From Rhodothermales bacterium (lineage in GTDB: Bacteria; Bacteroidota; Rhodothermia; Rhodothermales; VXPQ01): a stretch of 39,495 bases of DNA. This document shows positions 1,408 to 27,521 of the stretch, in pieces. Every line of letters begins with the position of its first letter. The first letter of the stretch is position 1. The position numbers and the translations under genes were made by a program. The notes under the pieces are model-generated. The model had not been told where the DNA came from. It made no database searches and was given only the letters and a program-made list of their open reading frames with translations. The stretch is taken from assembly GCA_040904565.1 (NCBI GenBank), contig JBBDTI010000042.1, positions 1-39,495 on the forward strand, written 5' to 3'.

Positions 1408-3060
1408 ATGTCATTGCACGAACTCGCCGGCAAGCCGGCACCCCGCGAGCTTCTGGTTAACGTCCCTCGGCTCGTCTCGGCGTATTTCTCTGTACGACCC
1501 GATCCTGAGAAGAAAGACCAGTGCGTCTCGTTCGGCACGTCGGGGCATAGAGGCTCCGCGCTGGACGCGTCGTTCAACGACGCACACATCGCTGCTATCT
1601 GCCAGGCACTGGCGGAGGTGCGTAAGGCCGACGGCGTAGATGGACCGATGCTCGTCGGCATCGATACGCACGCCCTCTCGGAGGCGGCCTTTACCACGGC
1701 GCTCGAGGTGCTGGCCGCCAACGGAGTCGAGCTCCGCATCCAGCAGGGAGGGGGTTTCACGCCTACACCGGTCATCTCGCACGCCATCCTGACGTATAAC
1801 GAGGGGCGGTCGAGCGGACTCGCAGACGGGATCGTCATCACACCGTCTCACAATCCTCCACAGGACGGCGGTTTCAAGTACAATCCACCTACAGGTGGAC
1901 CTGCGCCCGGTGAGACGACCGGCCGCATCGAAAACCGAGCCAATGAACTTCTCTTTGGTGGACTGAACGGCGTCCAGCGTATGTCGATCTATCGGGCCCG
2001 GGCATCAGGCACGACACAGGAAGTCGACTTCCTGCAGCCGTACGTGGAGGATCTTGCCGGCGTGATCGACATGGATGCGATCGCGGGATCCGGACTTAAG
2101 ATCGGCGCCGACCCCATGGGAGGCGCGGGCGTGGCGTACTGGGAGCCGATCGCGGACCGATACGGGCTCGATATCGAGGTCGTAAACCCGCGCGTCGACC
2201 CTACCTTTTCGTTCATGACGGTCGATAAGGACGGAAAGATTCGAATGGATTGCTCCTCACCCTATGCGATGGCCGGACTCATCAAGCTCAAGGACGGGTT
2301 CGACATCGCTTTCGGCAACGATCCGGACTTCGACCGGCACGGGATTGTGACCCGCTCGGGCGGACTCATGAATCCGAACCACTATCTGTCCGTCGCCGTC
2401 TCGTACCTGTTCCGGAACAGGCCCGGCTGGTCCGACGACGCGGCCGTCGGCAAGACGCTCGTTTCGAGCTCCATGATCGATCGGGTAGCCCGCGATATGG
2501 GACGAAGGCTGGCTGAAGTCCCCGTCGGCTTCAAATGGTTTGTGGACGGGCTGATGGATGGATCCTACGGCTTCGGCGGTGAAGAGAGCGCGGGCGCTTC
2601 CTTCCTGCGGAAGGATGGAACGGTGTGGACCACGGACAAGGACGGCATCATTCTCAGCCTCCTGGCGGCGGAGATCACGGCCGTAACGGGTAAGAATCCG
2701 TCCGAGCACTATGAGGACCTGGAAGCGCGCTTCGGGAGCCCCGTCTACGAACGCATCGATGCACCGGCGACGCGCGACCAGAAGGCCGCGCTCAAGAATC
2801 TGTCGCCGGATCAGGTAGATGCCCGAGAGCTGGCCGGCGAGCCGATCGAGGCCAAGCTAACCAGGGCGCCCGGCAACGACGCGCCTATCGGGGGCTTGAA
2901 GGTGGTGACCGAGAACGGCTGGTTCGCCGCCAGGCCGTCCGGGACCGAAGACATCTACAAGATTTACACGGAGAGCTTTCGGGGCACGGACCATCTCAAG
3001 CAGATCCAGAACGAAGCTCAGGCCATCGTCAGGAAGGCGTTTGAGTCGGCCGGACTCTAA
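1408..3060 (+). CDS. pgm: Phosphoglucomutase, alpha-D-glucose phosphate-specific
   Basis: FGTSGHRG, catalytic TPSHNP, metal loop DPDFDR, sugar-binding GEESAG, RPSGTE. Strong SD before ATG 1408. Confidence 0.96.
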
Positions 3061-3112
3061 GCCCGCGGTCAGGTAGCGCGTCGTATCGTCCACCGTCCAC
3101 CTCCTATAGGCC

Positions 3113-4051
3113 GTGTGCAGCATCGTGCTATCCGCGTCGTCACTGGCGTTCCCTTCGTCGTCCGAGCACCTCTTCGGTCGGCGTGCACCGCTCGTCGCCG
3201 AGGTTGGCGTCGGCAGCGGCGGCTTCATCGCAAATCTGGCGAAGCGACGACCGGATGTCAACATCCTGGGCATCGACCGAGCGCCGCAGTCGATCGCGCG
3301 TTCGTATCGTCGGCTCTTGCACGACGACATTCGCAACGCCCGGCTGTTCAAGGGAGACGCCGAATGGTTCGTACGCAACGTAATTCCCGCTGGCGGACTC
3401 GACCGCGTATACGTTAACTTTCCGGATCCCTGGCCGCGAAAGAAGCATCATGAGCGGCGCCTGCTTCAGGCTTCTTTTCTGCGCCTGCTGGCTTCGAGGC
3501 TGGCGGCGGACGGCGACGTACTCGTGACGACGGATCACGAGGAGTATTTCCAGTTCGTGCTGCACAGTGCCGAGGAAGCCGCGTGCTATCACGTGGTGTC
3601 ACCGGACCCGACGCCGGAAGTGCTGGAGACGAAATGGGCCCGGAAGGCGGATGTGCATTACCACGCCGTGCTTTCGCCGTCCGATGAGGTTGCAGACGTT
3701 CATGCGAACGTCGAAGTTACGGACACCATGTACCACGCAGTAGTCGGTGGCAGCCTGCCTGATTTTGCGCCGTTCGAACGGCGCACGATCACCTATCGCG
3801 ACGGCGTCGTCGTGTTAATGGACGCCTATCGTCCCCTGTCGGGAACGGGTGTCGTGTTCCTCGTGCATGTAGAGGAGAAGGGGTTGACCCAGGAAGTGCT
3901 CGTAGAGGTGCGGGAGGGCAAGGAGGGCTTCGTCGTGGCGCTGCGGCGTTTCGGTGAGCCGCTGCATACGCGCGGACTCCGTGCCGCCGTTCGCGTCATC
4001 ACCGAGTGGCTCGTCGAACAGGGGATGGACATCATTCACAGGAAATACTAA
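3113..4051 (+). CDS. trmB: tRNA (guanine46-N7)-methyltransferase with C-terminal extension
   Basis: EVGVGSGGF SAM motif, VNFPDPWPRKKHHERRL, TTDHEEYF, ETKW, plus about 110 extra C-terminal residues. GTG start is approximate. Confidence 0.9.
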   Translation: MCSIVLSASSLAFPSSSEHLFGRRAPLVAEVGVGSGGFIANLAKRRPDVNILGIDRAPQSIARSYRRLLHDDIRNARLFKGDAEWFVRNVIPAGGLDRVYVNFPDPWPRKKHHERRLLQASFLRLLASRLAADGDVLVTTDHEEYFQFVLHSAEEAACYHVVSPDPTPEVLETKWARKADVHYHAVLSPSDEVADVHANVEVTDTMYHAVVGGSLPDFAPFERRTITYRDGVVVLMDAYRPLSGTGVVFLVHVEEKGLTQEVLVEVREGKEGFVVALRRFGEPLHTRGLRAAVRVITEWLVEQGMDIIHRKY

Positions 4052-4053
4052 GC

Positions 4054-4716
4054 ATGTCGAATCGAAGCATCGGCCTTACGCCCGAGTTACACGCCTATAT
4101 GGTCGGCCACTCCGTTCGTGAACCGGACGTCCTGCGCCGGCTCCGCGAGGAAACGGCGGAGAGGGACCAATCTGGAATGCAGATCGCCCCCGAACAGGGT
4201 GCCTTTATGGCCATGCTCGTGCGAATGCTCGGGGCAAAGCGCACCCTGGAGGTGGGCGTCTTTACCGGTTACAGCTCGATCGCCGTGGCTCTTGCCTTGC
4301 CTTCGGACGGCCACATCACCGCCTGCGACGTCAGTAAAGAGTACACGTCGGTAGCGAAGAAATACTGGCGCGAAGCGGATGTGGAATCGATGATAGACCT
4401 GCGAATAGGTCCGGCCGCCGAAACCCTCGGGGTGCTGCTGGATGAAGGGAGAAGCGGGACGTACGATTTTGCATTCGTGGATGCCGACAAGCCGTCCTAC
4501 GATACGTATTACGAACACGCCCTCCGTCTCGTACGCCCGGGAGGCGTCATCGCGCTGGATAACGTGCTGCGCAACGGCCGCGTGCTCAGTCCGGCGGAGG
4601 ATGACGTGAGCACGAAGGCGATCTGTGCACTGAACGACAAGATCGTCGCCGACGATCGGGTCGACGTGTCCATGGTGCCGATCGCCGATGGAGTGACGCT
4701 CGCACGCAGGAGATAG
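4054..4716 (+). CDS. Class I SAM-dependent O-methyltransferase (CCoAOMT/MdmC-like)
   Basis: MQIAPEQG, LEVGVFTGYS, FDFAFVDADK-like motif (YDFAFVDADK), DNVL, IADGVTLA. ATG is 2 nt after the trmB stop. Confidence 0.92.
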   Translation: MSNRSIGLTPELHAYMVGHSVREPDVLRRLREETAERDQSGMQIAPEQGAFMAMLVRMLGAKRTLEVGVFTGYSSIAVALALPSDGHITACDVSKEYTSVAKKYWREADVESMIDLRIGPAAETLGVLLDEGRSGTYDFAFVDADKPSYDTYYEHALRLVRPGGVIALDNVLRNGRVLSPAEDDVSTKAICALNDKIVADDRVDVSMVPIADGVTLARRR

Positions 4717-4751
4717 CCGCGGCAGATTCGGAAGATGCCGCCCCGCGGGTC

Positions 4752-6269
4752 CTATCGGTAGTCGCGACGCTCGATCCAGCGCGACGCAGGGGCGGCGGCC
4801 CGGTTAACGGATGGGGCGGGCCGATCGATGCGTTGCAGTACCGCGGCAAGTGCCGCGGCATCCGCCGCCTCGTCGTCGACCTGACCTTCGGTCCCGGGGA
4901 GGCCGTCTGCGAAATGACGCTCCACAAACCGCGTCGTGAACGCGCCGGATTGAAAGGCGTCGTGCGTCATGACGAAGCGGCAGAACGGAATCGTCGTACG
5001 GACGCCTGCAACGTGATACTCATCCAGGGCACGCACCATGCGCCGCACGGCTTCCGCTCGCGTTCGCCCCCAGGCCGTCACCTTGGAGATCATCGGATCG
5101 TAGTGGATTTCGACGCGTCCGCCCTCCTCGACCCCCGCGTCGACCCGCACACCGAGTCCGGATGGCGGCAGGTGACGGACGAGCGTCCCCGGGTCAGGAA
5201 GAAAGTTATTGTCCGGATCCTCCGCATACACGCGGCACTCGATGGCGTGTCCGTGGATGTTCAGGTCGCCCTGTTCGTACGAGAGTGCCTCGCCCTCGGC
5301 GATGCGAATCTGTTCGGCCACGAGATCCAAGCCCGTGATCCATTCGGTCACCGGATGCTCCACCTGGAGCCGTGTGTTCATCTCCATGAAATAAAAACTC
5401 AGGTCGGCGTCCAGCAGGAACTCGACCGTGCCGGCGCCCACGTAGCCGCAGGCGCGGGCCGCTTCGACGGCGGCGGCGCCCATCCGCTCCCGGAGCTCGG
5501 GCGTAAGGACGGATGAGGGGGCTTCCTCGACGACCTTTTGATGGCGCCGCTGGACGGAACATTCTCTTTCGAAGAGATGCAGCACGTTGCCGTGCGAGTC
5601 GGCGAGGATCTGAAACTCGACGTGCCGGGGCTCCTGGATGTACTTCTCGATAAAGACCCGGCCGTCGCCGAATGCGGAGCCTGCTTCGCTGCATGCCATT
5701 TCGTACGCACGCTCGAGGTTGGCGGCACGGTGAACGACACGCATTCCTTTACCCCCACCGCCTGCGGCTGCCTTGATCAGTACGGGGAATCCGATACGCT
5801 CGGCCTCACTCAGGGCCGTCTCGGCGTCCTCGACGGCGTCCGTCGTTCCAGGAGCCATCGGCACGCCCGAGCTCCGCATGAGCATTCTCGCCCTGGTTTT
5901 GTCGCCCATGCTTCGGATCGCCTCAGGCGGAGGTCCGATAAAATGAATCCCGGCCTCCGCGCACGCCTCGGCAAATGACGCATTCTCGGATAGAAAACCG
6001 TATCCGGGATGAACGGCGTCGGCACCGGCGCAACGTGCCGCCTCCAGAATCCGGTCGACGTGGAGGTACGACTCGGCGGCGGGTGCCGGGCCGAGAAGAT
6101 ACGCCTCATCGGCGTGGCACACGTGCATCGCTCCGCGATCTGCTTCACTGAATACGGCCACGCCGCGGATGCCCAGCTCGCGGCACGTTCGCAGCACGCG
6201 AACGGCGATCTCGCCGCGGTTGGCTACCAGTATCTTTTTGATGGATCGTCCTGTCATATCTTCAGACAT
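4752..6269 (-). CDS. accC: Biotin carboxylase subunit of acetyl/propionyl-CoA carboxylase
   Basis: KKILVANRGEIAVR, HPGYGFLSEN, GGGGKGMR, ERECSVQRRHQK, FMEMNTRLQVEHPVTE, YDPMISK. No biotinyl domain. Confidence 0.93.
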   Translation of the reverse strand: MSEDMTGRSIKKILVANRGEIAVRVLRTCRELGIRGVAVFSEADRGAMHVCHADEAYLLGPAPAAESYLHVDRILEAARCAGADAVHPGYGFLSENASFAEACAEAGIHFIGPPPEAIRSMGDKTRARMLMRSSGVPMAPGTTDAVEDAETALSEAERIGFPVLIKAAAGGGGKGMRVVHRAANLERAYEMACSEAGSAFGDGRVFIEKYIQEPRHVEFQILADSHGNVLHLFERECSVQRRHQKVVEEAPSSVLTPELRERMGAAAVEAARACGYVGAGTVEFLLDADLSFYFMEMNTRLQVEHPVTEWITGLDLVAEQIRIAEGEALSYEQGDLNIHGHAIECRVYAEDPDNNFLPDPGTLVRHLPPSGLGVRVDAGVEEGGRVEIHYDPMISKVTAWGRTRAEAVRRMVRALDEYHVAGVRTTIPFCRFVMTHDAFQSGAFTTRFVERHFADGLPGTEGQVDDEAADAAALAAVLQRIDRPAPSVNRAAAPASRWIERRDYR

Positions 6270-19642: not shown

Positions 19643-19814
19643 GGCCTCCGGCACGGTTCGGTGATAGATCGACGGACGCGCACAAAGTAGGAAATTTTTG
19701 GAGGCGCGAGCCATCGCACGGCGGACGGAGCATCCTCTCTGGATCGCGCGTCTTATCTTTTTACCGTCCGATGAATCCTTTAACCACGCACGGCGACGAT
19801 CGGCGACCGAACGC

Positions 19815-21023
19815 ATGAATCATCATCCATGGCGACGCGTGGGCGGAACCTGGGGCGTCGTCCTCGTTCTGCTCGCCGTTCTTCCCGCCGGAGCGCAGCA
19901 CCTGCCCGCCAGGGGAACGGCATCGACCTTCGAGGCGGCGACGTGGAACATCAACTGGTTTGGTTCGCCGGCGAACGGCCCATCCGACGAGGAGCAGCAG
20001 CTCCGCAACGTTGCTCGCGTCATCCGGGAATCCGAGATAGACCTGTGGGCCGTTCAGGAGATCGACGACGCGGCGCATTTCCAGCGACTGCTCGACGAGC
20101 TGGGTGCGGAATGGGCGGGGGAGATCAGCCGCACCGGCTCGAACTTCAAGCTCGGATTCGTATATCGGAGGGACGTGATTTTCGTGCGGCAAAAATCGGC
20201 GATTCTGACGTCGCACGCCGCTGACTTCGCGGGACGCCCGCCCCTTCAGATCGAGGCCGACGTGATGCTGCCGGCCGACACGCTCCAGGTCGTTTTCATC
20301 AATCTCCACATGAAGGCGTTCGGCGACGACCGGTCGTACGATCAGCGAGTTGCGGGAGCCCGTCTCCTGAAGGAGCACGTCGACATACACCTGACTCATC
20401 GAGCGGTCGTCATACTGGGCGATTTCAACGACGAGCTCGGGTCGTCCATCAGCAACGGCCGGCCATCGCCCTATCAGGAACTTTTGGAGGCGTCGGACGA
20501 ATACGCGTTTCTTAGCTGGACGCTCGACGTACGGGATGCCCGGACCTTCTGTGCGACGTCTACCTGCAGCGCCGGGTCGACGTTCGACCACATTCTGGTT
20601 ACGAACGAGATCGTCGACGCGTACGACGTGGCGTCCGCCGAGACTTACGCCGAGGTGCTTGGGATCGTGGAGGGGTATACGACGACGACGTCCGACCATC
20701 TTCCCGTGTACGCGCGCTTCGGGACGGGATCGAGCACAGGCTATGAGCGACGTTCAGGAAGGACTTCGCCGTCGCTCACCGTCTACCCCAATCCGTTCGT
20801 GGCCTCGACCGCGATTGAATATGAGATGAACGTGCCGGGACCGGCCGGGCTGACGTTATACGACGTCATGGGACGCGTCGTACGACGCCACGTCGATCCG
20901 TATCGCGCCACCGGCATGCACCGGTTTCGTGTGGATGGAAGCGGGCTGGCCGCCGGCGTCTACATGGCCCAGGTCGACGCGCCGGGAGGGCGCCTGACGG
21001 CCCGCGTCGTACGCATTCATTGA
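19815..21023 (+). CDS. Endonuclease/exonuclease/phosphatase family protein with T9SS C-terminal sorting domain
   Basis: Signal peptide, ATWNINWF, AVQEI, HMKA, GDFND, DHIL and SDHLPV. CTD motifs YPNPF..YDVMGR..AAGVYM. Confidence 0.9.
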   Translation: MNHHPWRRVGGTWGVVLVLLAVLPAGAQHLPARGTASTFEAATWNINWFGSPANGPSDEEQQLRNVARVIRESEIDLWAVQEIDDAAHFQRLLDELGAEWAGEISRTGSNFKLGFVYRRDVIFVRQKSAILTSHAADFAGRPPLQIEADVMLPADTLQVVFINLHMKAFGDDRSYDQRVAGARLLKEHVDIHLTHRAVVILGDFNDELGSSISNGRPSPYQELLEASDEYAFLSWTLDVRDARTFCATSTCSAGSTFDHILVTNEIVDAYDVASAETYAEVLGIVEGYTTTTSDHLPVYARFGTGSSTGYERRSGRTSPSLTVYPNPFVASTAIEYEMNVPGPAGLTLYDVMGRVVRRHVDPYRATGMHRFRVDGSGLAAGVYMAQVDAPGGRLTARVVRIH

Positions 21024-22747: not shown

Positions 22748-23257
22748 ATGCCTAAGACGATCTTTTCATCCCTCCTTTTTGTCCTGCTGGTTCTGCTCGT
22801 AGGGGGCTGCGATTCAGGTGACCCCATCGATGAACCGCATCCGAGAGACGTGGCCGGGCTGTACAACTTCACGGAGTTTACGTTCGAGCCGAGCGGAACC
22901 GCGTTTCAGCCGATCATCGTCCTGGATACGCTCGTGCAGTCTGAAACCAATCTTCGCCTCTCGAGCGGCGGCAATTTCATCCTTTCGTACCAGTTCATCA
23001 ACGGGGATGTATTCTTTCCCGCCGGCAACTTTGCCGTAACCGCGTCTACCGTACGGCTGAACGGGGAGGACACGTATCGGCCGCAGTTCGAGCAATTGCT
23101 TCTGACCGACGAGTTCACGCTGCGTCGAAGCGTCGACGAGCCGGGTCTGCTCACCGCCTCGATTTCGAAAACCATCAACCCATCCGAGTTTTCGGACCGA
23201 TATGCGGGAGTGACCGAGATGTCCGGCACGCTGAAGCTTCGGCTGGTCAAAGAATAA
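22748..23257 (+). CDS. Hypothetical lipoprotein, beta-rich (lipocalin-like pattern)
   Basis: Lipobox LVGGC-D, VAGLYNFT near the N-terminus, and alternating beta-strand pattern. Confidence 0.82.
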   Translation: MPKTIFSSLLFVLLVLLVGGCDSGDPIDEPHPRDVAGLYNFTEFTFEPSGTAFQPIIVLDTLVQSETNLRLSSGGNFILSYQFINGDVFFPAGNFAVTASTVRLNGEDTYRPQFEQLLLTDEFTLRRSVDEPGLLTASISKTINPSEFSDRYAGVTEMSGTLKLRLVKE

Positions 23258-23313: not shown

Positions 23314-25545
23314 ATGCCTCGACCCACAATAGACTACGGTTCCTCACGGCACCTCATCTCCATTTTTCTTCTAATGTTTTTCGGCATCACGACCGCCCAC
23401 GCACAGGTGCGCGGCCTGAGCTATACGCTGTCTCCGGTCGGCGAGCAGATCTTCTTTGGTGACAACGCGGGAATGGAGCGCGGTTTCGTCTACGGCGGCG
23501 AGGTCGGCTTCGGGTTCGGACGCCTTGTGGAGCTGCATGCCGTCTACCTGAGAAACGACGGATTATCCACCGACTTCGGTACCGTCAGCGGCATCACGGA
23601 GGAGACGCGCGAATTGCTCGTGGGACTCCCGTCTCGATCGGTGAACATGCAGCGATACGGTGGAAAGCTGCGCCTTAACGCTCCAATAGAAAATGTCGTC
23701 CCCTTCGGGTTCGTCGGTGCGGGTATCGTTCGCTTGGAGCCGGAGCATCTCAATCCGACGCGCACGATCTACCTGGGCGCCGGGGCCGGCGTTCAGTTTG
23801 CGTTCGGGGGACGTTACGCACTGGCTCTTTCAGCGGAACGGTTTAGCTACCGGTACAATCTAGGCTCCACCTTTTTCGACGGCCTGGATCTGGCCGATCT
23901 CGGTCTGGCTCCGGAGAGCTTCAATCAGATTGACGTGAATAACTGGGCCTATAGGGCTGGCCTGCAGATATACGTCGGAGGCAGGGCGCCGGGCGAAGAG
24001 ACGTCGCTCGACCGTGCGCTGCGCGAGCAGATTTCGGGCGGGTTTCGAGGCTTGAGTCTTCGCTTCGAGCCTGCCGTGAGCACGCTGGCTTTCCACGAAG
24101 ACCTGGGGTTTCGAGGGGACCAGCGCTTCGTCGGACTCTATGCAGGTTTGAATCTGGGACCCTACGTCGGCGCCCGTGCCTTTTACTGGCGCGCGCTCGA
24201 ACAGGGCGGACTGAACCTGGAAGCGCTGCAGGCCTACGGAGGCGAAGTACGCTTCGAGTTGGGCGTCAGTCAGTCTCTGGCGCCCTATCTCATGGCGGGT
24301 GGGGGCTACATGGATGTGCTCGAGGGGTACGTCGGGCGGGAAGGCCGGACTCCCGGAGACGAGCCGTTCGTCCTCGTAGGCGCCGGTGCGTCGCTCCCAC
24401 TCAGCGAGTCGCTGTCGCTCAACGCGAGCGCCCGATCCGTGCTCATGGGTGAGGAGGGGGTCGACAATGTCGACGATCCGGGGCAGGTGCGCTCGAGCTG
24501 GATGTATTCGGCCGGACTGAATTTCGCCTTCGGGAGAAGCACAACCACGGCATCTAGCGCCTTCGAGACGGCGATGGATCGAGGCGATGCGGAATTGCGT
24601 GATGAATTGCAGCGCTCGGAGGCCAGGATCGACTCGCTGGCGCGAGTTCTCGACCGCTTGCAGTTGGGTGTGCCGGCTGCCGCCTCGTCCGATTCGGTCG
24701 CAGCGGGGCAGCTCGTGACTGAAGAGGGACGGAGAGCGCCGGCTCGCGAACCGCGAATGGTCACGCTGCCGCTTCCCGAGGAGGGCGAACTCTACATACG
24801 ATTCGGCCGTCCCGGCGGCGTCAGCATTGAAACCGTTACGGAAGATGGGGAAGTCGTCCGTTCGCCAGGGAACGCGGCTGGATTGACGTCCGACCAGATC
24901 GACGAGATCGTCCGCGCGACGGTGCGCGAGCAGCTAGGTGGTTCGGGGGATGCCGCCGTGACGAATGAACAGATCGTCCGTATCGAACAGATGCTGGATC
25001 AGCGACTCGACGCCATGGAAGAGCGTCTGCAGGCACAGATCGAAAGCGATCGGCAGCGGTTCGAGCGGCAAACGACGCCCTCCACCGTCGTGATAGACCG
25101 ATCGGGATCGTCCGCTTCCACTCGTTCCAGTGGTCCGCGCGCCGTGAAGCCCTTCACGGGAGCGATGTTCGGGACACCCGATATGGGTGTGGTTGGATTT
25201 CGACTGGACATGGATGCATCGCTGCTGGGTCCCATCGACCTTCAACCCGAGTTTGCGCTGGGCTTCGGAGCGGGCACGTACGCCTATCACGTCAGCGTCG
25301 ACGCCATATACGATCTGACGTTCATGCAGCGATCTCTCGGGGGTGCCCTGCCATACGTTGGACTGGGAGGGGGGATGCTGGGCTTCAACGACAGTCCCGC
25401 CGATACGCCGGGCGTTCAGCTTACGGTCAACAGCCGCATCGGCGCCGATTTCGACCTGCCGTGGGGCCGGTTTTTTGGGGAGTATGCAGCGTATGACGCG
25501 TTCACATTTAACCGAATCGTCTTAGGGTACCGATTCGGCCTATGA
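23314..25545 (+). CDS. Outer-membrane protein with three predicted OMP beta-barrel domains and a coiled-coil linker
   Basis: Signal peptide (AHA-Q). Barrel-like segments at about 23404-23985, 24050-24535 and 25140-25542, each with P(F/Y)xxxG(A/G)G and terminal GLQIY/GLNFAF/GYRF strands. Heptad-rich acidic linker. Confidence 0.8.
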   Translation: MPRPTIDYGSSRHLISIFLLMFFGITTAHAQVRGLSYTLSPVGEQIFFGDNAGMERGFVYGGEVGFGFGRLVELHAVYLRNDGLSTDFGTVSGITEETRELLVGLPSRSVNMQRYGGKLRLNAPIENVVPFGFVGAGIVRLEPEHLNPTRTIYLGAGAGVQFAFGGRYALALSAERFSYRYNLGSTFFDGLDLADLGLAPESFNQIDVNNWAYRAGLQIYVGGRAPGEETSLDRALREQISGGFRGLSLRFEPAVSTLAFHEDLGFRGDQRFVGLYAGLNLGPYVGARAFYWRALEQGGLNLEALQAYGGEVRFELGVSQSLAPYLMAGGGYMDVLEGYVGREGRTPGDEPFVLVGAGASLPLSESLSLNASARSVLMGEEGVDNVDDPGQVRSSWMYSAGLNFAFGRSTTTASSAFETAMDRGDAELRDELQRSEARIDSLARVLDRLQLGVPAAASSDSVAAGQLVTEEGRRAPAREPRMVTLPLPEEGELYIRFGRPGGVSIETVTEDGEVVRSPGNAAGLTSDQIDEIVRATVREQLGGSGDAAVTNEQIVRIEQMLDQRLDAMEERLQAQIESDRQRFERQTTPSTVVIDRSGSSASTRSSGPRAVKPFTGAMFGTPDMGVVGFRLDMDASLLGPIDLQPEFALGFGAGTYAYHVSVDAIYDLTFMQRSLGGALPYVGLGGGMLGFNDSPADTPGVQLTVNSRIGADFDLPWGRFFGEYAAYDAFTFNRIVLGYRFGL

Positions 25546-26453
25546 GTCGATCTGCTATGACGTCTGTCGCATGCGTGTTCGTATTGCTGACCGCCTTTCC
25601 TGCACTCGGACAGGCACAACCGGATACGACCGGCCGCACGATCACCATCCCTGTACCCGATGAGGGGATCATCTACATCCGATCGGGCCCACCCGGAGGC
25701 GTACGCATCCGGTCGCTGCGAACCGCGCAGGGTCGCCGGGTGGACACGGGCGGCGACGATCTCGAACGTCCGGACGTCGCCGCCGTCGATCTCGAACGGC
25801 TGGCCCGGGTCTTCGATCGTCAGGGCCTCGATCTGGACGCCGAATACGTGCGCTCGGGCGGCCGCGACGTGATCGTCCTCCGTGATGCGAATACCGGGCA
25901 GGCCGCCGACACCCTTTCTGTTGCGGAAGCAGCGGAACTGGTGGAGAGTTTCGCGGACGAAGCTCTTCGTGGAGAGGATATCGATGGGGCCGTTGCCGCG
26001 GGCGATGACGGGGGCGTTTCCGATGGTCTCAACGAGGTACGTCCAGACTCGAGCCTGGTGGCCGTCGTAGAGCGGTTGATGCTGGACAAAGGGGTGTTTC
26101 GGTCGCTGCAGGTGAACTTTGAATTCGACCGTAGCGAGCTTCTGCCTTCGTCCCGGCCGACGATCGAGGCGGTCGCGGACGTTCTCAACAGGTATCCCGA
26201 CCTTCAGGTCGAGGTAGCCGGACACACCGACTCGATCGGGACGGCGTCTTACAATCAGGCGCTGTCGGAACGTCGGGCGGCACGTGTTGCGGACGATCTC
26301 ACCGCTCTCGGCATCGACGCCGATCGACTCCGTGCCACCGGTTACGGGGAAACACGCCCCATCCTTTCAAACGACTCGCCGACGGGAAGGGTGTTGAACA
26401 GGCGGGTTGAATTTAGAGTGCTCGACGGAGCCGCCATCGACGTACAAGACTAG
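25542..26453 (+). CDS. OmpA C-terminal (peptidoglycan-binding) domain protein without its own barrel
   Basis: Signal peptide, VNFEFDRSEL, VAGHTDSIG..YNQALSERRA, GYGETRP and NRRVEF. ATGA overlap with the upstream gene. Confidence 0.92.
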   Translation: MSRSAMTSVACVFVLLTAFPALGQAQPDTTGRTITIPVPDEGIIYIRSGPPGGVRIRSLRTAQGRRVDTGGDDLERPDVAAVDLERLARVFDRQGLDLDAEYVRSGGRDVIVLRDANTGQAADTLSVAEAAELVESFADEALRGEDIDGAVAAGDDGGVSDGLNEVRPDSSLVAVVERLMLDKGVFRSLQVNFEFDRSELLPSSRPTIEAVADVLNRYPDLQVEVAGHTDSIGTASYNQALSERRAARVADDLTALGIDADRLRATGYGETRPILSNDSPTGRVLNRRVEFRVLDGAAIDVQD

Positions 26454-26484: not shown

Positions 26485-26643
26485 ATGGACGTACTACGCA
26501 TCATCATTGCCGTTCTCCTGCCCCCACTGGGCGTTTTTCTGCAGGTCGGTCTGGGAGCGCAGTTCTGGATCAACATCCTGCTGACGCTCCTCGGCTACGT
26601 ACCGGGGATTGTCCACGCCGTTTGGATCATCGCGAAGCGGTGA
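26485..26643 (+). CDS. YqaE/Pmp3 family small membrane protein
   Basis: MDVLRIIIAVLLPPLGVFLQVG..FWINILLTLLGYVPGIVHAVWII is a canonical Pmp3 sequence. Confidence 0.93.
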   Translation: MDVLRIIIAVLLPPLGVFLQVGLGAQFWINILLTLLGYVPGIVHAVWIIAKR

Positions 26644-27076: not shown

Positions 27077-27305
27077 GTTCGACTCGATATATGACCAAGA
27101 GTAGGCGTGACACGGACGACCGTGGCGTGCTATAAACTAAGCAGCCGCCGGTGGGGTCCGTGTACGTGTTCAAGTTTGACAGGAAAAAGGCCGATACGTT
27201 TGTTAATTTTTGCGTCGTGCGTCCTAAGAGCTGTTGCTATTTGTGAAGCGGACTGCCGTACCTTTATCGTGCGGCCTCACCTATCCACCAGTATGTATGA
27301 TGATT

Positions 27306-27521
27306 ATGGCACCCTTTTCCTACGAGATGGACGAGCAGGATGTCCTCGATTATCCGATGGCTTTTGAAGACGACGATCTCGATTTCGAGTCGGACGACGA
27401 TCTCGATGATTTTGACGACGACTTCGACGACGACGACGATTTCGATTTCGATGATGATGAAGACTTCGACTTCGACGACGACGACTTTGAGGACGACGAC
27501 TTCGACGAAGACGACCTGTAG
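27306..27521 (+). CDS. Hyper-acidic Asp/Phe-repeat small protein (71 aa)
   Basis: MAPFSYEMDEQDVLDYPMAFEDDDLDFESDDD...DEDDL*. 43 of 71 residues are D/E and none are K/R. Mixed synonymous codons, followed by a terminator. Confidence 0.65.
   Translation: MAPFSYEMDEQDVLDYPMAFEDDDLDFESDDDLDDFDDDFDDDDDFDFDDDEDFDFDDDDFEDDDFDEDDL

Follow-up and report, generated by a model that had tools for sequence, protein, structure and literature searches.

A motif shared by a three-barrel outer-membrane protein and its OmpA-domain neighbor in Rhodothermales, a candidate module for docking the outer membrane to the cell wall

For Lpp, Pal, OmpA, and OmpM, it is well established how the outer membrane is held to the cell wall; in the Bacteroidota/Rhodothermota branch, the subject is, to our knowledge, poorly charted. 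Among the described systems, those closest to the locus analyzed here are RmpM with its porins and TpgA with AtaA. RmpM binds through its N-terminal ~40 residues; we know of no partner of RmpM that is not a single-barrel trimeric porin, nor of one that carries a copy of a shared motif or is encoded in an overlapping pair with RmpM. In the other system, tpgA lies next to ataA. RmpM (class 4 protein or PIII of Neisseria) interacts with PorA/PorB complexes, associates non-covalently with peptidoglycan, and stabilizes the outer membrane (PMC4226279). TpgA of Acinetobacter sp. Tol 5 is a periplasmic peptidoglycan binder, whose N-terminal domain, a folded α-α-β-β-β unit resembling BamE, binds the transmembrane barrel domain of AtaA (PMC12523085). 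A third relevant group is the Poly-8 multibarrel proteins of Bacteroidetes genera, in which one chain holds several 8-stranded barrels and a helical linker (Solan et al. 2021).

The locus lies in a window of 39,495 nucleotides, the whole stretch of DNA that was analyzed (contig JBBDTI010000042.1 of a Rhodothermales bacterium), and encodes a predicted lipoprotein, a three-barrel outer-membrane protein (OMP), and an OmpA-domain protein (Table 1). A preliminary description made from the letters of this DNA had pointed out a 23-residue likeness between the latter two and proposed that it clips the peptidoglycan-binding protein onto the barrel protein. Here, we examine what the shared motif is, where it occurs, and how far a docking role can be argued.

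Table 1. Positions of the genes, domains, and motif copies in the window.
Feature	Coordinates	Strand	Remarks
Predicted lipoprotein, 169 aa	22748..23257	+	Lipobox ..LVGGC by eye; first gene of conserved cassette
OMP, 743 aa	23314..25545	+	Signal peptide, then three distinct barrels of 8 strands, the second and third separated by a helical periplasmic insert of ~200 residues (predicted)
Barrel 1	23416..23979	+	Residues 35-222; 8 strands (DSSP)
Barrel 2	24055..24531	+	Residues 248-406; 8 strands (DSSP)
Helix 413-450, 38 residues	24550..24663	+	Leaves barrel 2; predicted descending stalk arm; DSSP helix in both models
OMP copy of motif	24754..24834	+	Residues 481-507; 24760-24828 of the preliminary description = residues 483-505
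Helices 526-542 and 551-586	24889..25071	+	Predicted ascending stalk arm back to barrel 3 (DSSP)
Barrel 3	25135..25539	+	Residues 608-742; 8 strands (DSSP)
Secreted OmpA-domain protein, 303 aa	25542..26453	+	Start overlaps OMP stop
OmpA-protein copy of motif	25641..25709	+	Residues 34-56; 8-10 residues past predicted leader cleavage
OmpA-like domain (peptidoglycan-binding type)	26118..26402	+	PF00691, E 1.3e-21
Terminator-like hairpin + T-run	26519..26533	+	66 nt past OmpA-protein stop; consensus scan

Architecture of the two proteins

The reading of the first protein as a triple barrel with a linker agrees with two AlphaFold2 models and with a structural match for each barrel. The model built with 108 sequences has a pLDDT of 84 and a pTM of 0.65. 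The three predicted β regions, taken as residues 35-224, 244-406, and 604-743, each match solved 8-stranded barrels, with Z scores of 14.7-16.5. In VIA-align comparisons, barrel 1 resembles NspA (Z 15.8, rmsd 2.4, 150 aligned), OmpW (Z 15.5), and the OprF N-domain (Z 15.3); barrel 2 resembles CarO (Z 14.7), OprH (Z 13.5), and the OmpA TM domain (Z 11.7); and barrel 3 resembles the OmpA TM domain (3nb3, Z 15.5) and PagL (Z 15.3). In sequence, residues 19-181 match PF13505 (OMP_b-brl) with 34.6 bits against a cut-off of 28.7, and barrel 2 matches TIGR04565 weakly (24.1 bits, below the cut-off). Family members are unnamed 'hypothetical' proteins; the family is an uncharacterized one of Rhodothermales-type outer-membrane proteins with a predicted 8+8+8-strand build. 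The predicted 8+8+helices+8 arrangement is that of Poly-8 proteins, which have at least two 8-stranded barrels per chain (here 3 x 8 strands in both models) and an α-helical linker between barrels (here three DSSP helices). The part of the Poly-8 account on which we draw mentions no conserved linker motif, OmpA partner, or Rhodothermus-type organism (Solan et al. 2021).

Within the insert, the motif is a conserved island flanked by linkers whose pLDDT stays below 50 and by two helices, 38 and 36 residues long, that start or end at the barrels; from the models, we infer a two-armed stalk. A β-hairpin, as first suggested for the motif, is not predicted: residues 451-525 have no secondary structure in either monomer model, and the motif region has no DSSP element, with pLDDT values of 71, 64, and 44 per 10-residue block and flanks (456-479 and 502-524) below 50. 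The moderate values of the core in the deep-alignment model could mean that the motif packs in cis elsewhere on the OMP.

The second protein has neither a barrel nor a lipobox and so lacks a membrane anchor of its own. Inspected by eye, its hydrophobic leader ends at residue ~23-25, which places the motif just after the signal peptide, as had been described. The C-terminal domain matches PF00691 over residues 193-287 with 77.2 bits (gathering score 27.2). Among 10 neighbors, G227, H228, and D230 are invariant and N238, L241, S242, R245, and A246 are at least 90% conserved; the Asp of the ..HTD.. turn (D230) and the Arg of ..LS..RA.. (R245), which we take to be the peptidoglycan-contact residues, are among them. 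In the same neighbors, P37, R47, G53, V54, R55, and I56 of the motif copy are conserved. None of the named NCBIfam OmpA subfamilies (Pal, YiaD, YfiB, LptF, MotB, TpgA, and others) reaches its whole-protein cut-off; the best is YiaD (124.2/175), with Pal at 80.6/125.35 and TpgA at 50.9/350, and all span the OmpA domain only. Pfam BamE gives no match in this protein at E<=1, and no sequence relation to RmpM was detected.

Upstream, the lipoprotein matched no Pfam or NCBIfam family. Downstream, the hairpin and T-run possibly end the three-gene unit, a weak call because the number of such elements found equals the shuffle expectation (4 vs 4.0).

Homology and conservation of the motif

Re-translation reproduced both 23-residue stretches exactly, and a recount gave the same 14/23 identities. 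When every 23-residue window of the OMP was paired with every one of the OmpA protein (202,601 pairs), 23 pairs had 9-14 identities, which we interpret as overlapping offsets of one alignment; the highest background is 8/23. A chance or compositional likeness of two unrelated Gly/Pro-rich stretches is favored by the shortness of the segment and by the high G+C content of the genome, in which codons for Gly, Pro, and Arg abound; yet the gap between 14/23 and 8/23, together with the profile comparison and the profile search of representative proteins given below, refutes that explanation, to which we assign a negligible probability. BLASTP aligns OMP residues 472-557 with OmpA-protein residues 23-90 at E=1e-6, and a 48-aa piece searched against the whole 4.02-Mb genome finds these two places only (2.1e-27 and 1.7e-6; next E=0.2). 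Also against chance, a profile comparison (hhalign) of 18 OmpA N-termini with 32 OMP linkers gave a probability of 98.1% and E 7.8e-14 over 71 columns, covering motif and helix, and both gene families conserve the motif, in several families within the order and also in one genome that belongs to another class. Judged by this homology, the OmpA-protein copy is a paralogue of the OMP motif plus the following helix.

Divergence of the codons, from which protein-level selection had been deduced, proved half true: DNA identity is 47/69, and the 14 identical residues are encoded by the same codon in 7 cases and by synonymous codons in 7. Selection at the protein level is supported. The weaker echo of LARVLDR (OMP 442-448, within helix 413-450) in LARVFDR (OmpA protein 87-93) exists, yet the two are not colinear: the echo precedes the motif in the OMP and follows it in the OmpA protein. 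By profile comparison, the colinear partner of the OmpA-protein post-motif helix is OMP ~551-574. In helix 413-450, D440, S441, and L442 are nearly invariant (33 sequences).

The OMP motif has the core pattern P.P..GE.Y.R.G, followed by an optional tail, PGGV.IES. In 108 OMPs, G491, E492, R496, and G498 are invariant, and P486, P488, and Y494 are at least 90% conserved. These four are among the 10 invariant columns of the family, and E492 and R496 are its sole invariant residues other than Gly or Pro; to judge from this alignment, no other element of the family is as strongly conserved as the motif. As the preliminary description held, it belongs to no named domain: no Pfam or NCBIfam name was found. 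A profile built from it, the search proposed at that time, found matches restricted to the OMP/OmpA gene pair and its fusions. Across 401 genomes of the phylum, every match at E<=1.6e-4 falls in an OMP frame of 736-900 aa or in the next downstream ORF, and 1.84 billion representative proteins yielded 236 matches at E<=1e-3. A set of 177 motif-bearing proteins comprises 144 of OMP type, 16 (plus P0101) of OmpA type, 6 true fusions, 9 short fragments, and 1 unrelated protein.

Conservation in orthologues of both genes held fully for the OMP alone. Every OMP orthologue examined has the motif, with the core unchanged in 78/78 loci, whereas only a subset of OmpA neighbors does: 19/56 carry a strict OMP-like motif, ~10/56 a degenerate one (2 doubtful), and 9/56 neither this nor the element of the remaining 18, here called 'motif B' ('V.RVR.RI..IRG' followed by a Pro-rich hydrophobic strand). 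Among the neighbors that have it, the OmpA-side copy shows good conservation in several families (f1, f14, f10, f17, f19, and f33).

Gene linkage, fusions, and the two classes of copy

The ATGA overlap of the two genes is real (OMP stop at 25543-25545, OmpA-protein ATG at 25542). An OmpA-domain ORF directly follows the OMP gene in 56 of the 73 loci with at least 900 nt of room, and the two are a conserved adjacent pair. No such ORF follows in 17/73. When five of these genomes (G020, G558, G473, G021, and G465) were queried with the C-terminal 137 aa of the neighbor, three returned distant, unlinked OmpA domains (<=45% identity) and two returned nothing at E<=1e-10. G558, the one locus of this kind examined, retains motif and tail complete in its OMP, and a lipoprotein gene follows in place of an OmpA gene.

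Six natural fusions combine barrels, motif, and OmpA domain (the last above the Pfam cut-off), with a single motif per chain; in P0131 and P0132, motif and helix run straight into the OmpA domain without a third barrel. The motif core is invariant in these fusions as well. Since it is invariant both there and in OMPs lacking a motif-bearing or adjacent OmpA partner, clipping onto the neighbor cannot be its only role. The partner occurs in fused or re-equipped forms, namely fusions, neighbors with their own barrel, and neighbors with motif B. The neighbors with a barrel of their own, at two loci (G005 and G004a), lack the motif, which speaks for docking as the means by which an anchorless neighbor would be held.

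The invariance of the core whether the neighbor lacks the motif, is fused, or is not adjacent speaks for a common third partner, bound by both copies, so that the OMP and the OmpA protein need not touch via the motif. Such a partner could be the lipoprotein encoded upstream, the OmpA-like domain itself, the periplasmic face of a barrel, or peptidoglycan. The core pLDDT of 64-71 in the monomer model, as if from an intramolecular contact, fits this explanation, as does the lipoprotein gene, which immediately precedes the OMP gene in 10 loci, the present one included; that count, however, is out of 17 orthologue loci, and several of the others have too little upstream sequence to judge. Harder to square with one shared site are the two classes of copy. 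In OMP copies, column 17 is Glu (58/61) and column 22 is Phe/Tyr (59/61), with a tail ..IES and a net charge of -2.0; in OmpA copies, column 17 is Val/Ile/Leu (16/18) and column 22 is Ser/Ala (15/18), with a tail ..RIRS and a net charge of +2.2. In the OmpA protein of this locus, for instance, a hydrophobic residue replaces the invariant Glu and the tail is GGVRIRS. Because of these class-specific residues and opposite charges, the copies are not interchangeable, and we consider a common third partner unlikely, if worth keeping in mind.

The single-motif fusions bear on a further alternative, namely that motif and helices oligomerize the OMP or its fused ancestors, and that the OmpA copy is left over from partial duplication or fission, kept for its own dimerization or folding and not for docking. 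The extension of the homology over the helix agrees with this, as does the decay or replacement of the neighbor-side motif in most lineages. Against it, the copy on the OmpA side, where present, has class-specific residues of its own and is well conserved in several families, which argues for a maintained, specialized function; moreover, a soluble OmpA protein that merely self-associated would lack any connection to the outer membrane. Homotypic assembly appears to us improbable, more so than a third partner.

Pairs of motifs from one genome are more alike than pairs across genomes (residual +5.0, reached by 0/10,000 permutations, with phylogeny uncorrected). Co-occurrence of tail and partner trait draws on few independent events: among four supported independent pairs, the partner trait changed in the same direction in ~2.5, in the opposite direction in 0, and not at all in ~1.5 (sign test p>=0.25). 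In G042, both copies end in ..INS; in G552, G568, and G554, the OMP tail is kept and the partner tail lost; and in G505, E stands opposite D, which is not complementary.

A proposed docking model and its relation to known tethers

As we see it, the motif stands an even chance of being a docking module by which a soluble peptidoglycan binder is attached to the barrel protein, functionally like TpgA-AtaA or RmpM-porin; we infer the pairing of copies and the tether role from the features above. In this docking model, the 23-residue match is the core of a duplicated periplasmic module of motif and following helix. One copy would sit at the far end of the two-armed helical stalk inserted between barrels 2 and 3, and the other forms the mature N-terminus of the adjacent soluble protein. 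We propose that the acidic copy of the OMP and the basic one of the OmpA protein pair by strand addition, assisted by the neighboring helices, which would leave the peptidoglycan-binding domain suspended from the tip of the stalk, roughly 5 nm beneath the outer membrane. Two genes would thereby supply a non-covalent tether that joins the outer membrane to the cell wall. The motif interface is probably older than the OMP/OmpA split, and in the fused relatives (barrels-motif-helix-OmpA), it would act between identical chains.

As in TpgA-AtaA, an OmpA-like peptidoglycan-binding protein would use its N-terminal part to reach an outer-membrane β-barrel protein; as in RmpM, the periplasmic protein ends in an OmpA-like domain. 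The traits of OMP-docked binders, solubility and a gene next to the partner's, are both found here, with a leader, no lipobox, and no barrel homology. Unlike the TpgA domain, the candidate element here consists of a ~27-aa motif and a helix and has its paralogue within the partner itself, and unlike AtaA, a trimeric autotransporter, the partner is a predicted three-barrel protein with a helical stalk. The locus would also follow OmpA and OprF in linking outer membrane to cell wall through an 8-stranded barrel and an OmpA-like domain, a logic that the fused relatives (P0131 and others) keep in one chain; here, however, the barrel is triplicated, a ~200-residue helical insert is added, and the OmpA domain resides on a separate soluble protein. 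Unlike in Pal and Lpp, there is no lipid anchor or sign of covalent linkage.

More tentatively, and with somewhat less than even confidence, we suggest an undescribed modular tether of Rhodothermales type, in which an invariant acidic peptide at the tip of the ~5-nm stalk (GE.Y.R.G ...IES) is recognized by a basic paralogue and the partner has repeatedly been fused, split, and re-equipped. As the OmpA protein would recognize the tip via a paralogue of the same peptide, the interface would have been made by duplicating one partner's own sequence. If this is true, the family contributes a tether that is split and non-covalent and whose partners would recognize each other via paralogous, charge-complementary copies of one peptide, and its split, fused, and re-equipped variants would offer a natural series for studying how an interface originates by duplication.

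Gene unit and predicted architecture of the outer-membrane protein

Three tightly packed genes on the same strand of the window encode a predicted lipoprotein of no known family, the outer-membrane protein (OMP) and the OmpA-domain protein (see the table). As the preliminary description had it, the ATG of the third gene overlaps the OMP stop codon as ATGA. Lipoprotein homologues directly upstream of the OMP gene are conserved in 10 loci; this protein may be a third part of the system. A promoter scan at the locus found none, and terminators were exactly as numerous as expected from shuffling. The database entry for the OMP, P0003 (723 aa), begins 20 codons downstream (MFFGITT...); since the ATG at 23314 yields a regular leader that has both a charged n-region and a hydrophobic core (helix 11–23 in the model), the longer reading seems preferable. 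Elsewhere in the window, a 441-aa open reading frame (ORF) resembles, by eye, enzymes of the endonuclease/exonuclease/phosphatase type and seems to carry a type IX secretion sorting domain at its C-terminus, as would befit a Bacteroidota/Rhodothermota host, and a possibly coding 95-aa ORF, overlapped by long antisense ORFs, ends in ~55 residues of near-pure Asp/Glu/Phe repeats.

Coordinates of the genes and motif copies discussed, in the window and in other genomes
Feature	Genome	Position	Strand	Product or remark
441-aa ORF	window	19698–21023	+	
Lipoprotein gene	window	22748–23257	+	169 aa
OMP gene	window	23314–25545	+	743 aa
Motif copy in OMP	window	24760–24828	+	residues 483–505
OmpA-domain gene	window	25542–26453	+	303 aa
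Motif copy in OmpA protein	window	25641–25709	+	residues 34–56
95-aa ORF	window	27234–27521	+	
Gene downstream of OMP	G005 (locus L011)	3207–4766		OmpA domain with barrel
Gene downstream of OMP	G004/G004a (locus L013)	3670–4803		OmpA domain with barrel
Gene downstream of OMP	G558 (locus L064)	2839–3570		predicted lipoprotein, 243 aa

Whole-protein searches with the OMP returned unnamed ‘hypothetical’ proteins only, two of them labelled Salinibacter sp. and Salinivenus sp., and Pfam recognizes OMP_b-brl alone, at residues 19–181. No description of the family, the motif or the gene pair was found in the literature covered, which excludes most subscription journals. AlphaFold2 models built from 33 sequences (pLDDT 74, pTM 0.46) and 108 sequences (pLDDT 84, pTM 0.65) both contain three eight-strand blocks (residues 35–222, 248–406 and 608–742) and helices at 413–450, 526–542 and 551–586. 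In VIA-align, each block superposes separately on solved 8-stranded barrels, among them NspA for block 1 (Z 15.8), CarO for block 2 (Z 14.7) and the OmpA transmembrane domain for block 3 (Z 15.5). Thus, the ‘triple barrel’ proposed earlier holds at the level of prediction. These superpositions supersede a Foldseek search of the PDB with the whole model, which returned generic barrels only (TM <0.3, rmsd ~20 Å). An ESM Atlas search with residues 405–610 gave no usable feature match, and its structural neighbors (TM 0.25–0.38) were unrelated.

Because helix 413–450 leads out of barrel 2 and helix 551–586 leads into barrel 3, the stretch that separates these helices, motif included, is predicted to be membrane-distal in the insert; were these 36–38-residue helices straight and upright, the motif would sit ~5 nm from the membrane. 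The motif is predicted with moderate confidence (pLDDT 71/64), above that of the linkers on either side of it (below 50). The β-hairpin previously suggested for the motif did not materialize: the OMP models place neither a strand nor a hairpin there, nor any other secondary structure.

Kinship and conservation of the two motif copies

The two peptides translate as originally quoted and are identical at 14 of 23 positions, against a maximum of 8 identities in background 23-residue window pairs from the same two proteins, so that chance resemblance is scarcely credible. BLASTP aligns the OMP with the OmpA protein at E = 1e-6, and a 48-aa probe matches the whole 4.02-Mb assembly at these two places only. 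When 18 neighbor N-termini were compared with 32 OMP linkers by hhalign, the match extended over 71 columns, from the motif through the subsequent helix (probability 98.1%, E 7.8e-14); this run used cut alignments without the fusion protein P0038, whose presence in the OMP alignment (A2) had yielded the OmpA domain only. A strict pattern for the post-motif helix finds few matches (16/55 neighbors, 16/78 OMPs), so we do not claim this helix to be universal. The LARVLDR/LARVFDR pair, initially taken for a weaker echo, lies outside the colinear match and was rejected as part of the homology. At the DNA level, 47 of 69 positions are identical, and for half of the shared residues the codons differ, which argues against recent gene conversion between the copies. 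Judged from the sequences, the OmpA-protein copy is a specialized paralogue of the OMP motif.

Sixteen of the 41 related genomes encode the OMP, with 17 orthologues among them that all carry the motif. Residues P486, G491, Y494, R496 and G498 are invariant among 33 OMP homologues collected independently of the motif. In 108 sequences partly collected via the motif, G491, E492, R496 and G498 make up four of the ten invariant columns of the whole OMP, with E492 and R496 the sole invariant residues other than Gly and Pro. Alignment A2 leaves out P0003 and the partial sequences P0030, P0032 and P0035.

A profile of the motif matched 27 of 401 genomes of the phylum, with all strong matches in an OMP-sized frame or the next ORF, 90 of 285 genomes of the order, and 236 of 1.84 billion representative proteins at E ≤ 1e-3. 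The 177 motif-bearing proteins that were sorted comprise 144 of OMP type (set A5 holds the 107 of 700–910 aa), 16 plus P0101 of OmpA-neighbor type, in which the motif lies close to the N-terminus, six true fusions, nine fragments of ≤202 aa and one unrelated repeat protein, P0141. To the check suggested in the preliminary description, the answer is that the motif resides in two architectures and their fusions, and no named domain matched it. P0141 (505 aa) has six tandem repeats with a core-like ..EEGEIYIR.DGKKVRRV.. separated by Ser/Thr/Gly-rich linkers; it lacks OMP or OmpA homology, shows sub-threshold Pfam matches to L24e and TFIID-18kDa on the repeat, and may represent an independent, convergent hairpin repeat.

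The two classes of copies differ systematically. Column 17 is Glu in OMP copies (58/61) and Val/Ile/Leu in OmpA copies (16/18); column 22 is Phe/Tyr in the former (59/61) and Ser/Ala in the latter (15/18). The tail following the core (P.P..GE.Y.R.G in the OMP) reads ..V(S/Q)IES in OMP copies, where present, and ..VRIRS in OmpA copies, and the mean net charge is −2.0 and +2.2, respectively. Motif pairs from the same genome are more alike than cross-genome pairs (permutation 0/10,000, uncorrected for relatedness); in genome G042, both copies read ..INS. Co-occurrence of the OMP tail with a neighbor motif offers ~4 independent contrasts in a phylogenetically controlled test, too few for significance, with four discordant genomes (G552, G568, G554 and G505).

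Variation of the downstream gene

From the 95 genomes with motif matches in the phylum and order scans, we picked 77 by hand, with a preference for long contigs, and these supplied 78 OMP loci; 17 genomes fell outside the sample, and G495 was left out as no OMP ORF passed the filter. An OmpA-domain ORF lies directly downstream of the OMP in 56 loci and is absent from 17 despite at least 900 nt of room; five loci end at a contig edge. Among the 56 neighbors, 19 have the OMP-like motif by a strict pattern, ~10 a degenerate motif, 18 a basic helix ‘V.RVR.RI..IRG’ and, after it, a hydrophobic strand with Pro (‘motif B’), and nine neither element; the ‘degenerate’ and ‘motif B’ classes follow loose patterns of our own, and at least two ‘degenerate’ members (G444, G574) look doubtful. 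Most neighbors without the OMP-like motif carry the V.RVR.RI..IRG-type N-terminal element, a basic amphipathic helix plus strand seen in L079, L080, L084, L088, L096, L100, L104, L107 and other loci. The neighbors in G039 and G490 look intermediate: a GGVRIRS tail precedes a VITVPVP strand by ~25 residues.

Other loci rearrange these parts. In G005 and G004/G004a, the downstream gene encodes a leader, an OmpA domain, a helical region and, last, a barrel of eight strands with homology to OMP residues ~520–740; this neighbor has its own membrane anchor and lacks the motif. All six fusions score above the Pfam OmpA cut-off: P0131 and P0132 lack a third barrel and consist of barrels, motif, helix and OmpA in that order, and P0038, P0125 and P0149 add OmpA after barrel 3.

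A docking model and its alternatives

The OmpA protein lacks a membrane anchor, and its domain of peptidoglycan-binding type shows the conserved Asp and Arg to be expected there; the sole other conserved feature of the protein, where its mature chain begins, is a copy, inverted in charge, of the element best conserved in the OMP. Fused genes, overlapping genes and the P0131/P0132 architecture all put the OmpA domain at the end of the motif and helix. In the simplest model, motif and helix would form an association interface, homotypic in fused forms and heterotypic in the split form of the window, where the acidic OMP copy would pair with the basic neighbor copy; the peptidoglycan binder would thereby hang from the stalk tip. 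Of the co-assembly module proposed in the preliminary description, the observation is confirmed and much extended, and the interpretation, although plausible, is supported in part only. A complex prediction for OMP 405–610 (A2) and OmpA protein 23–140 (alignment A3) scored 0.02–0.03 against a mark of 0.32, in a run without controls and with the partner fold uncertain, and so weighs on binding in neither direction.

The OMP core is invariant also where the neighbor lacks the motif, where the OmpA domain is fused, or where the neighbor is absent (e.g., G020, G558). In G558, a predicted lipoprotein gene replaces that of the OmpA protein and the nearest OmpA domain is unlinked (E 2.5e-12), and the OMP keeps the full motif and tail. 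Such invariance without a motif-bearing partner means that the core's primary job may be something other than docking, such as self-association, cis packing or contact with a third partner. A third partner shared by both copies is a somewhat unlikely explanation, and a homotypic element with a leftover copy in the OmpA protein an improbable one; what weight remains goes to explanations beyond these. Docking of the OmpA protein on the OMP through the motif stands, in our judgment, at an even chance.

Functionally, such docking would resemble TpgA–AtaA (PMC12523085) and RmpM–porin (PMC4226279), and the OMP shares its architecture with the poly-8 multibarrel proteins with helical linker that Solan et al. 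(PMC8346858) predicted. The pair plausibly falls into an established class, that of periplasmic OmpA-like proteins docked on an OMP, here in an uncharacterized multi-barrel family.
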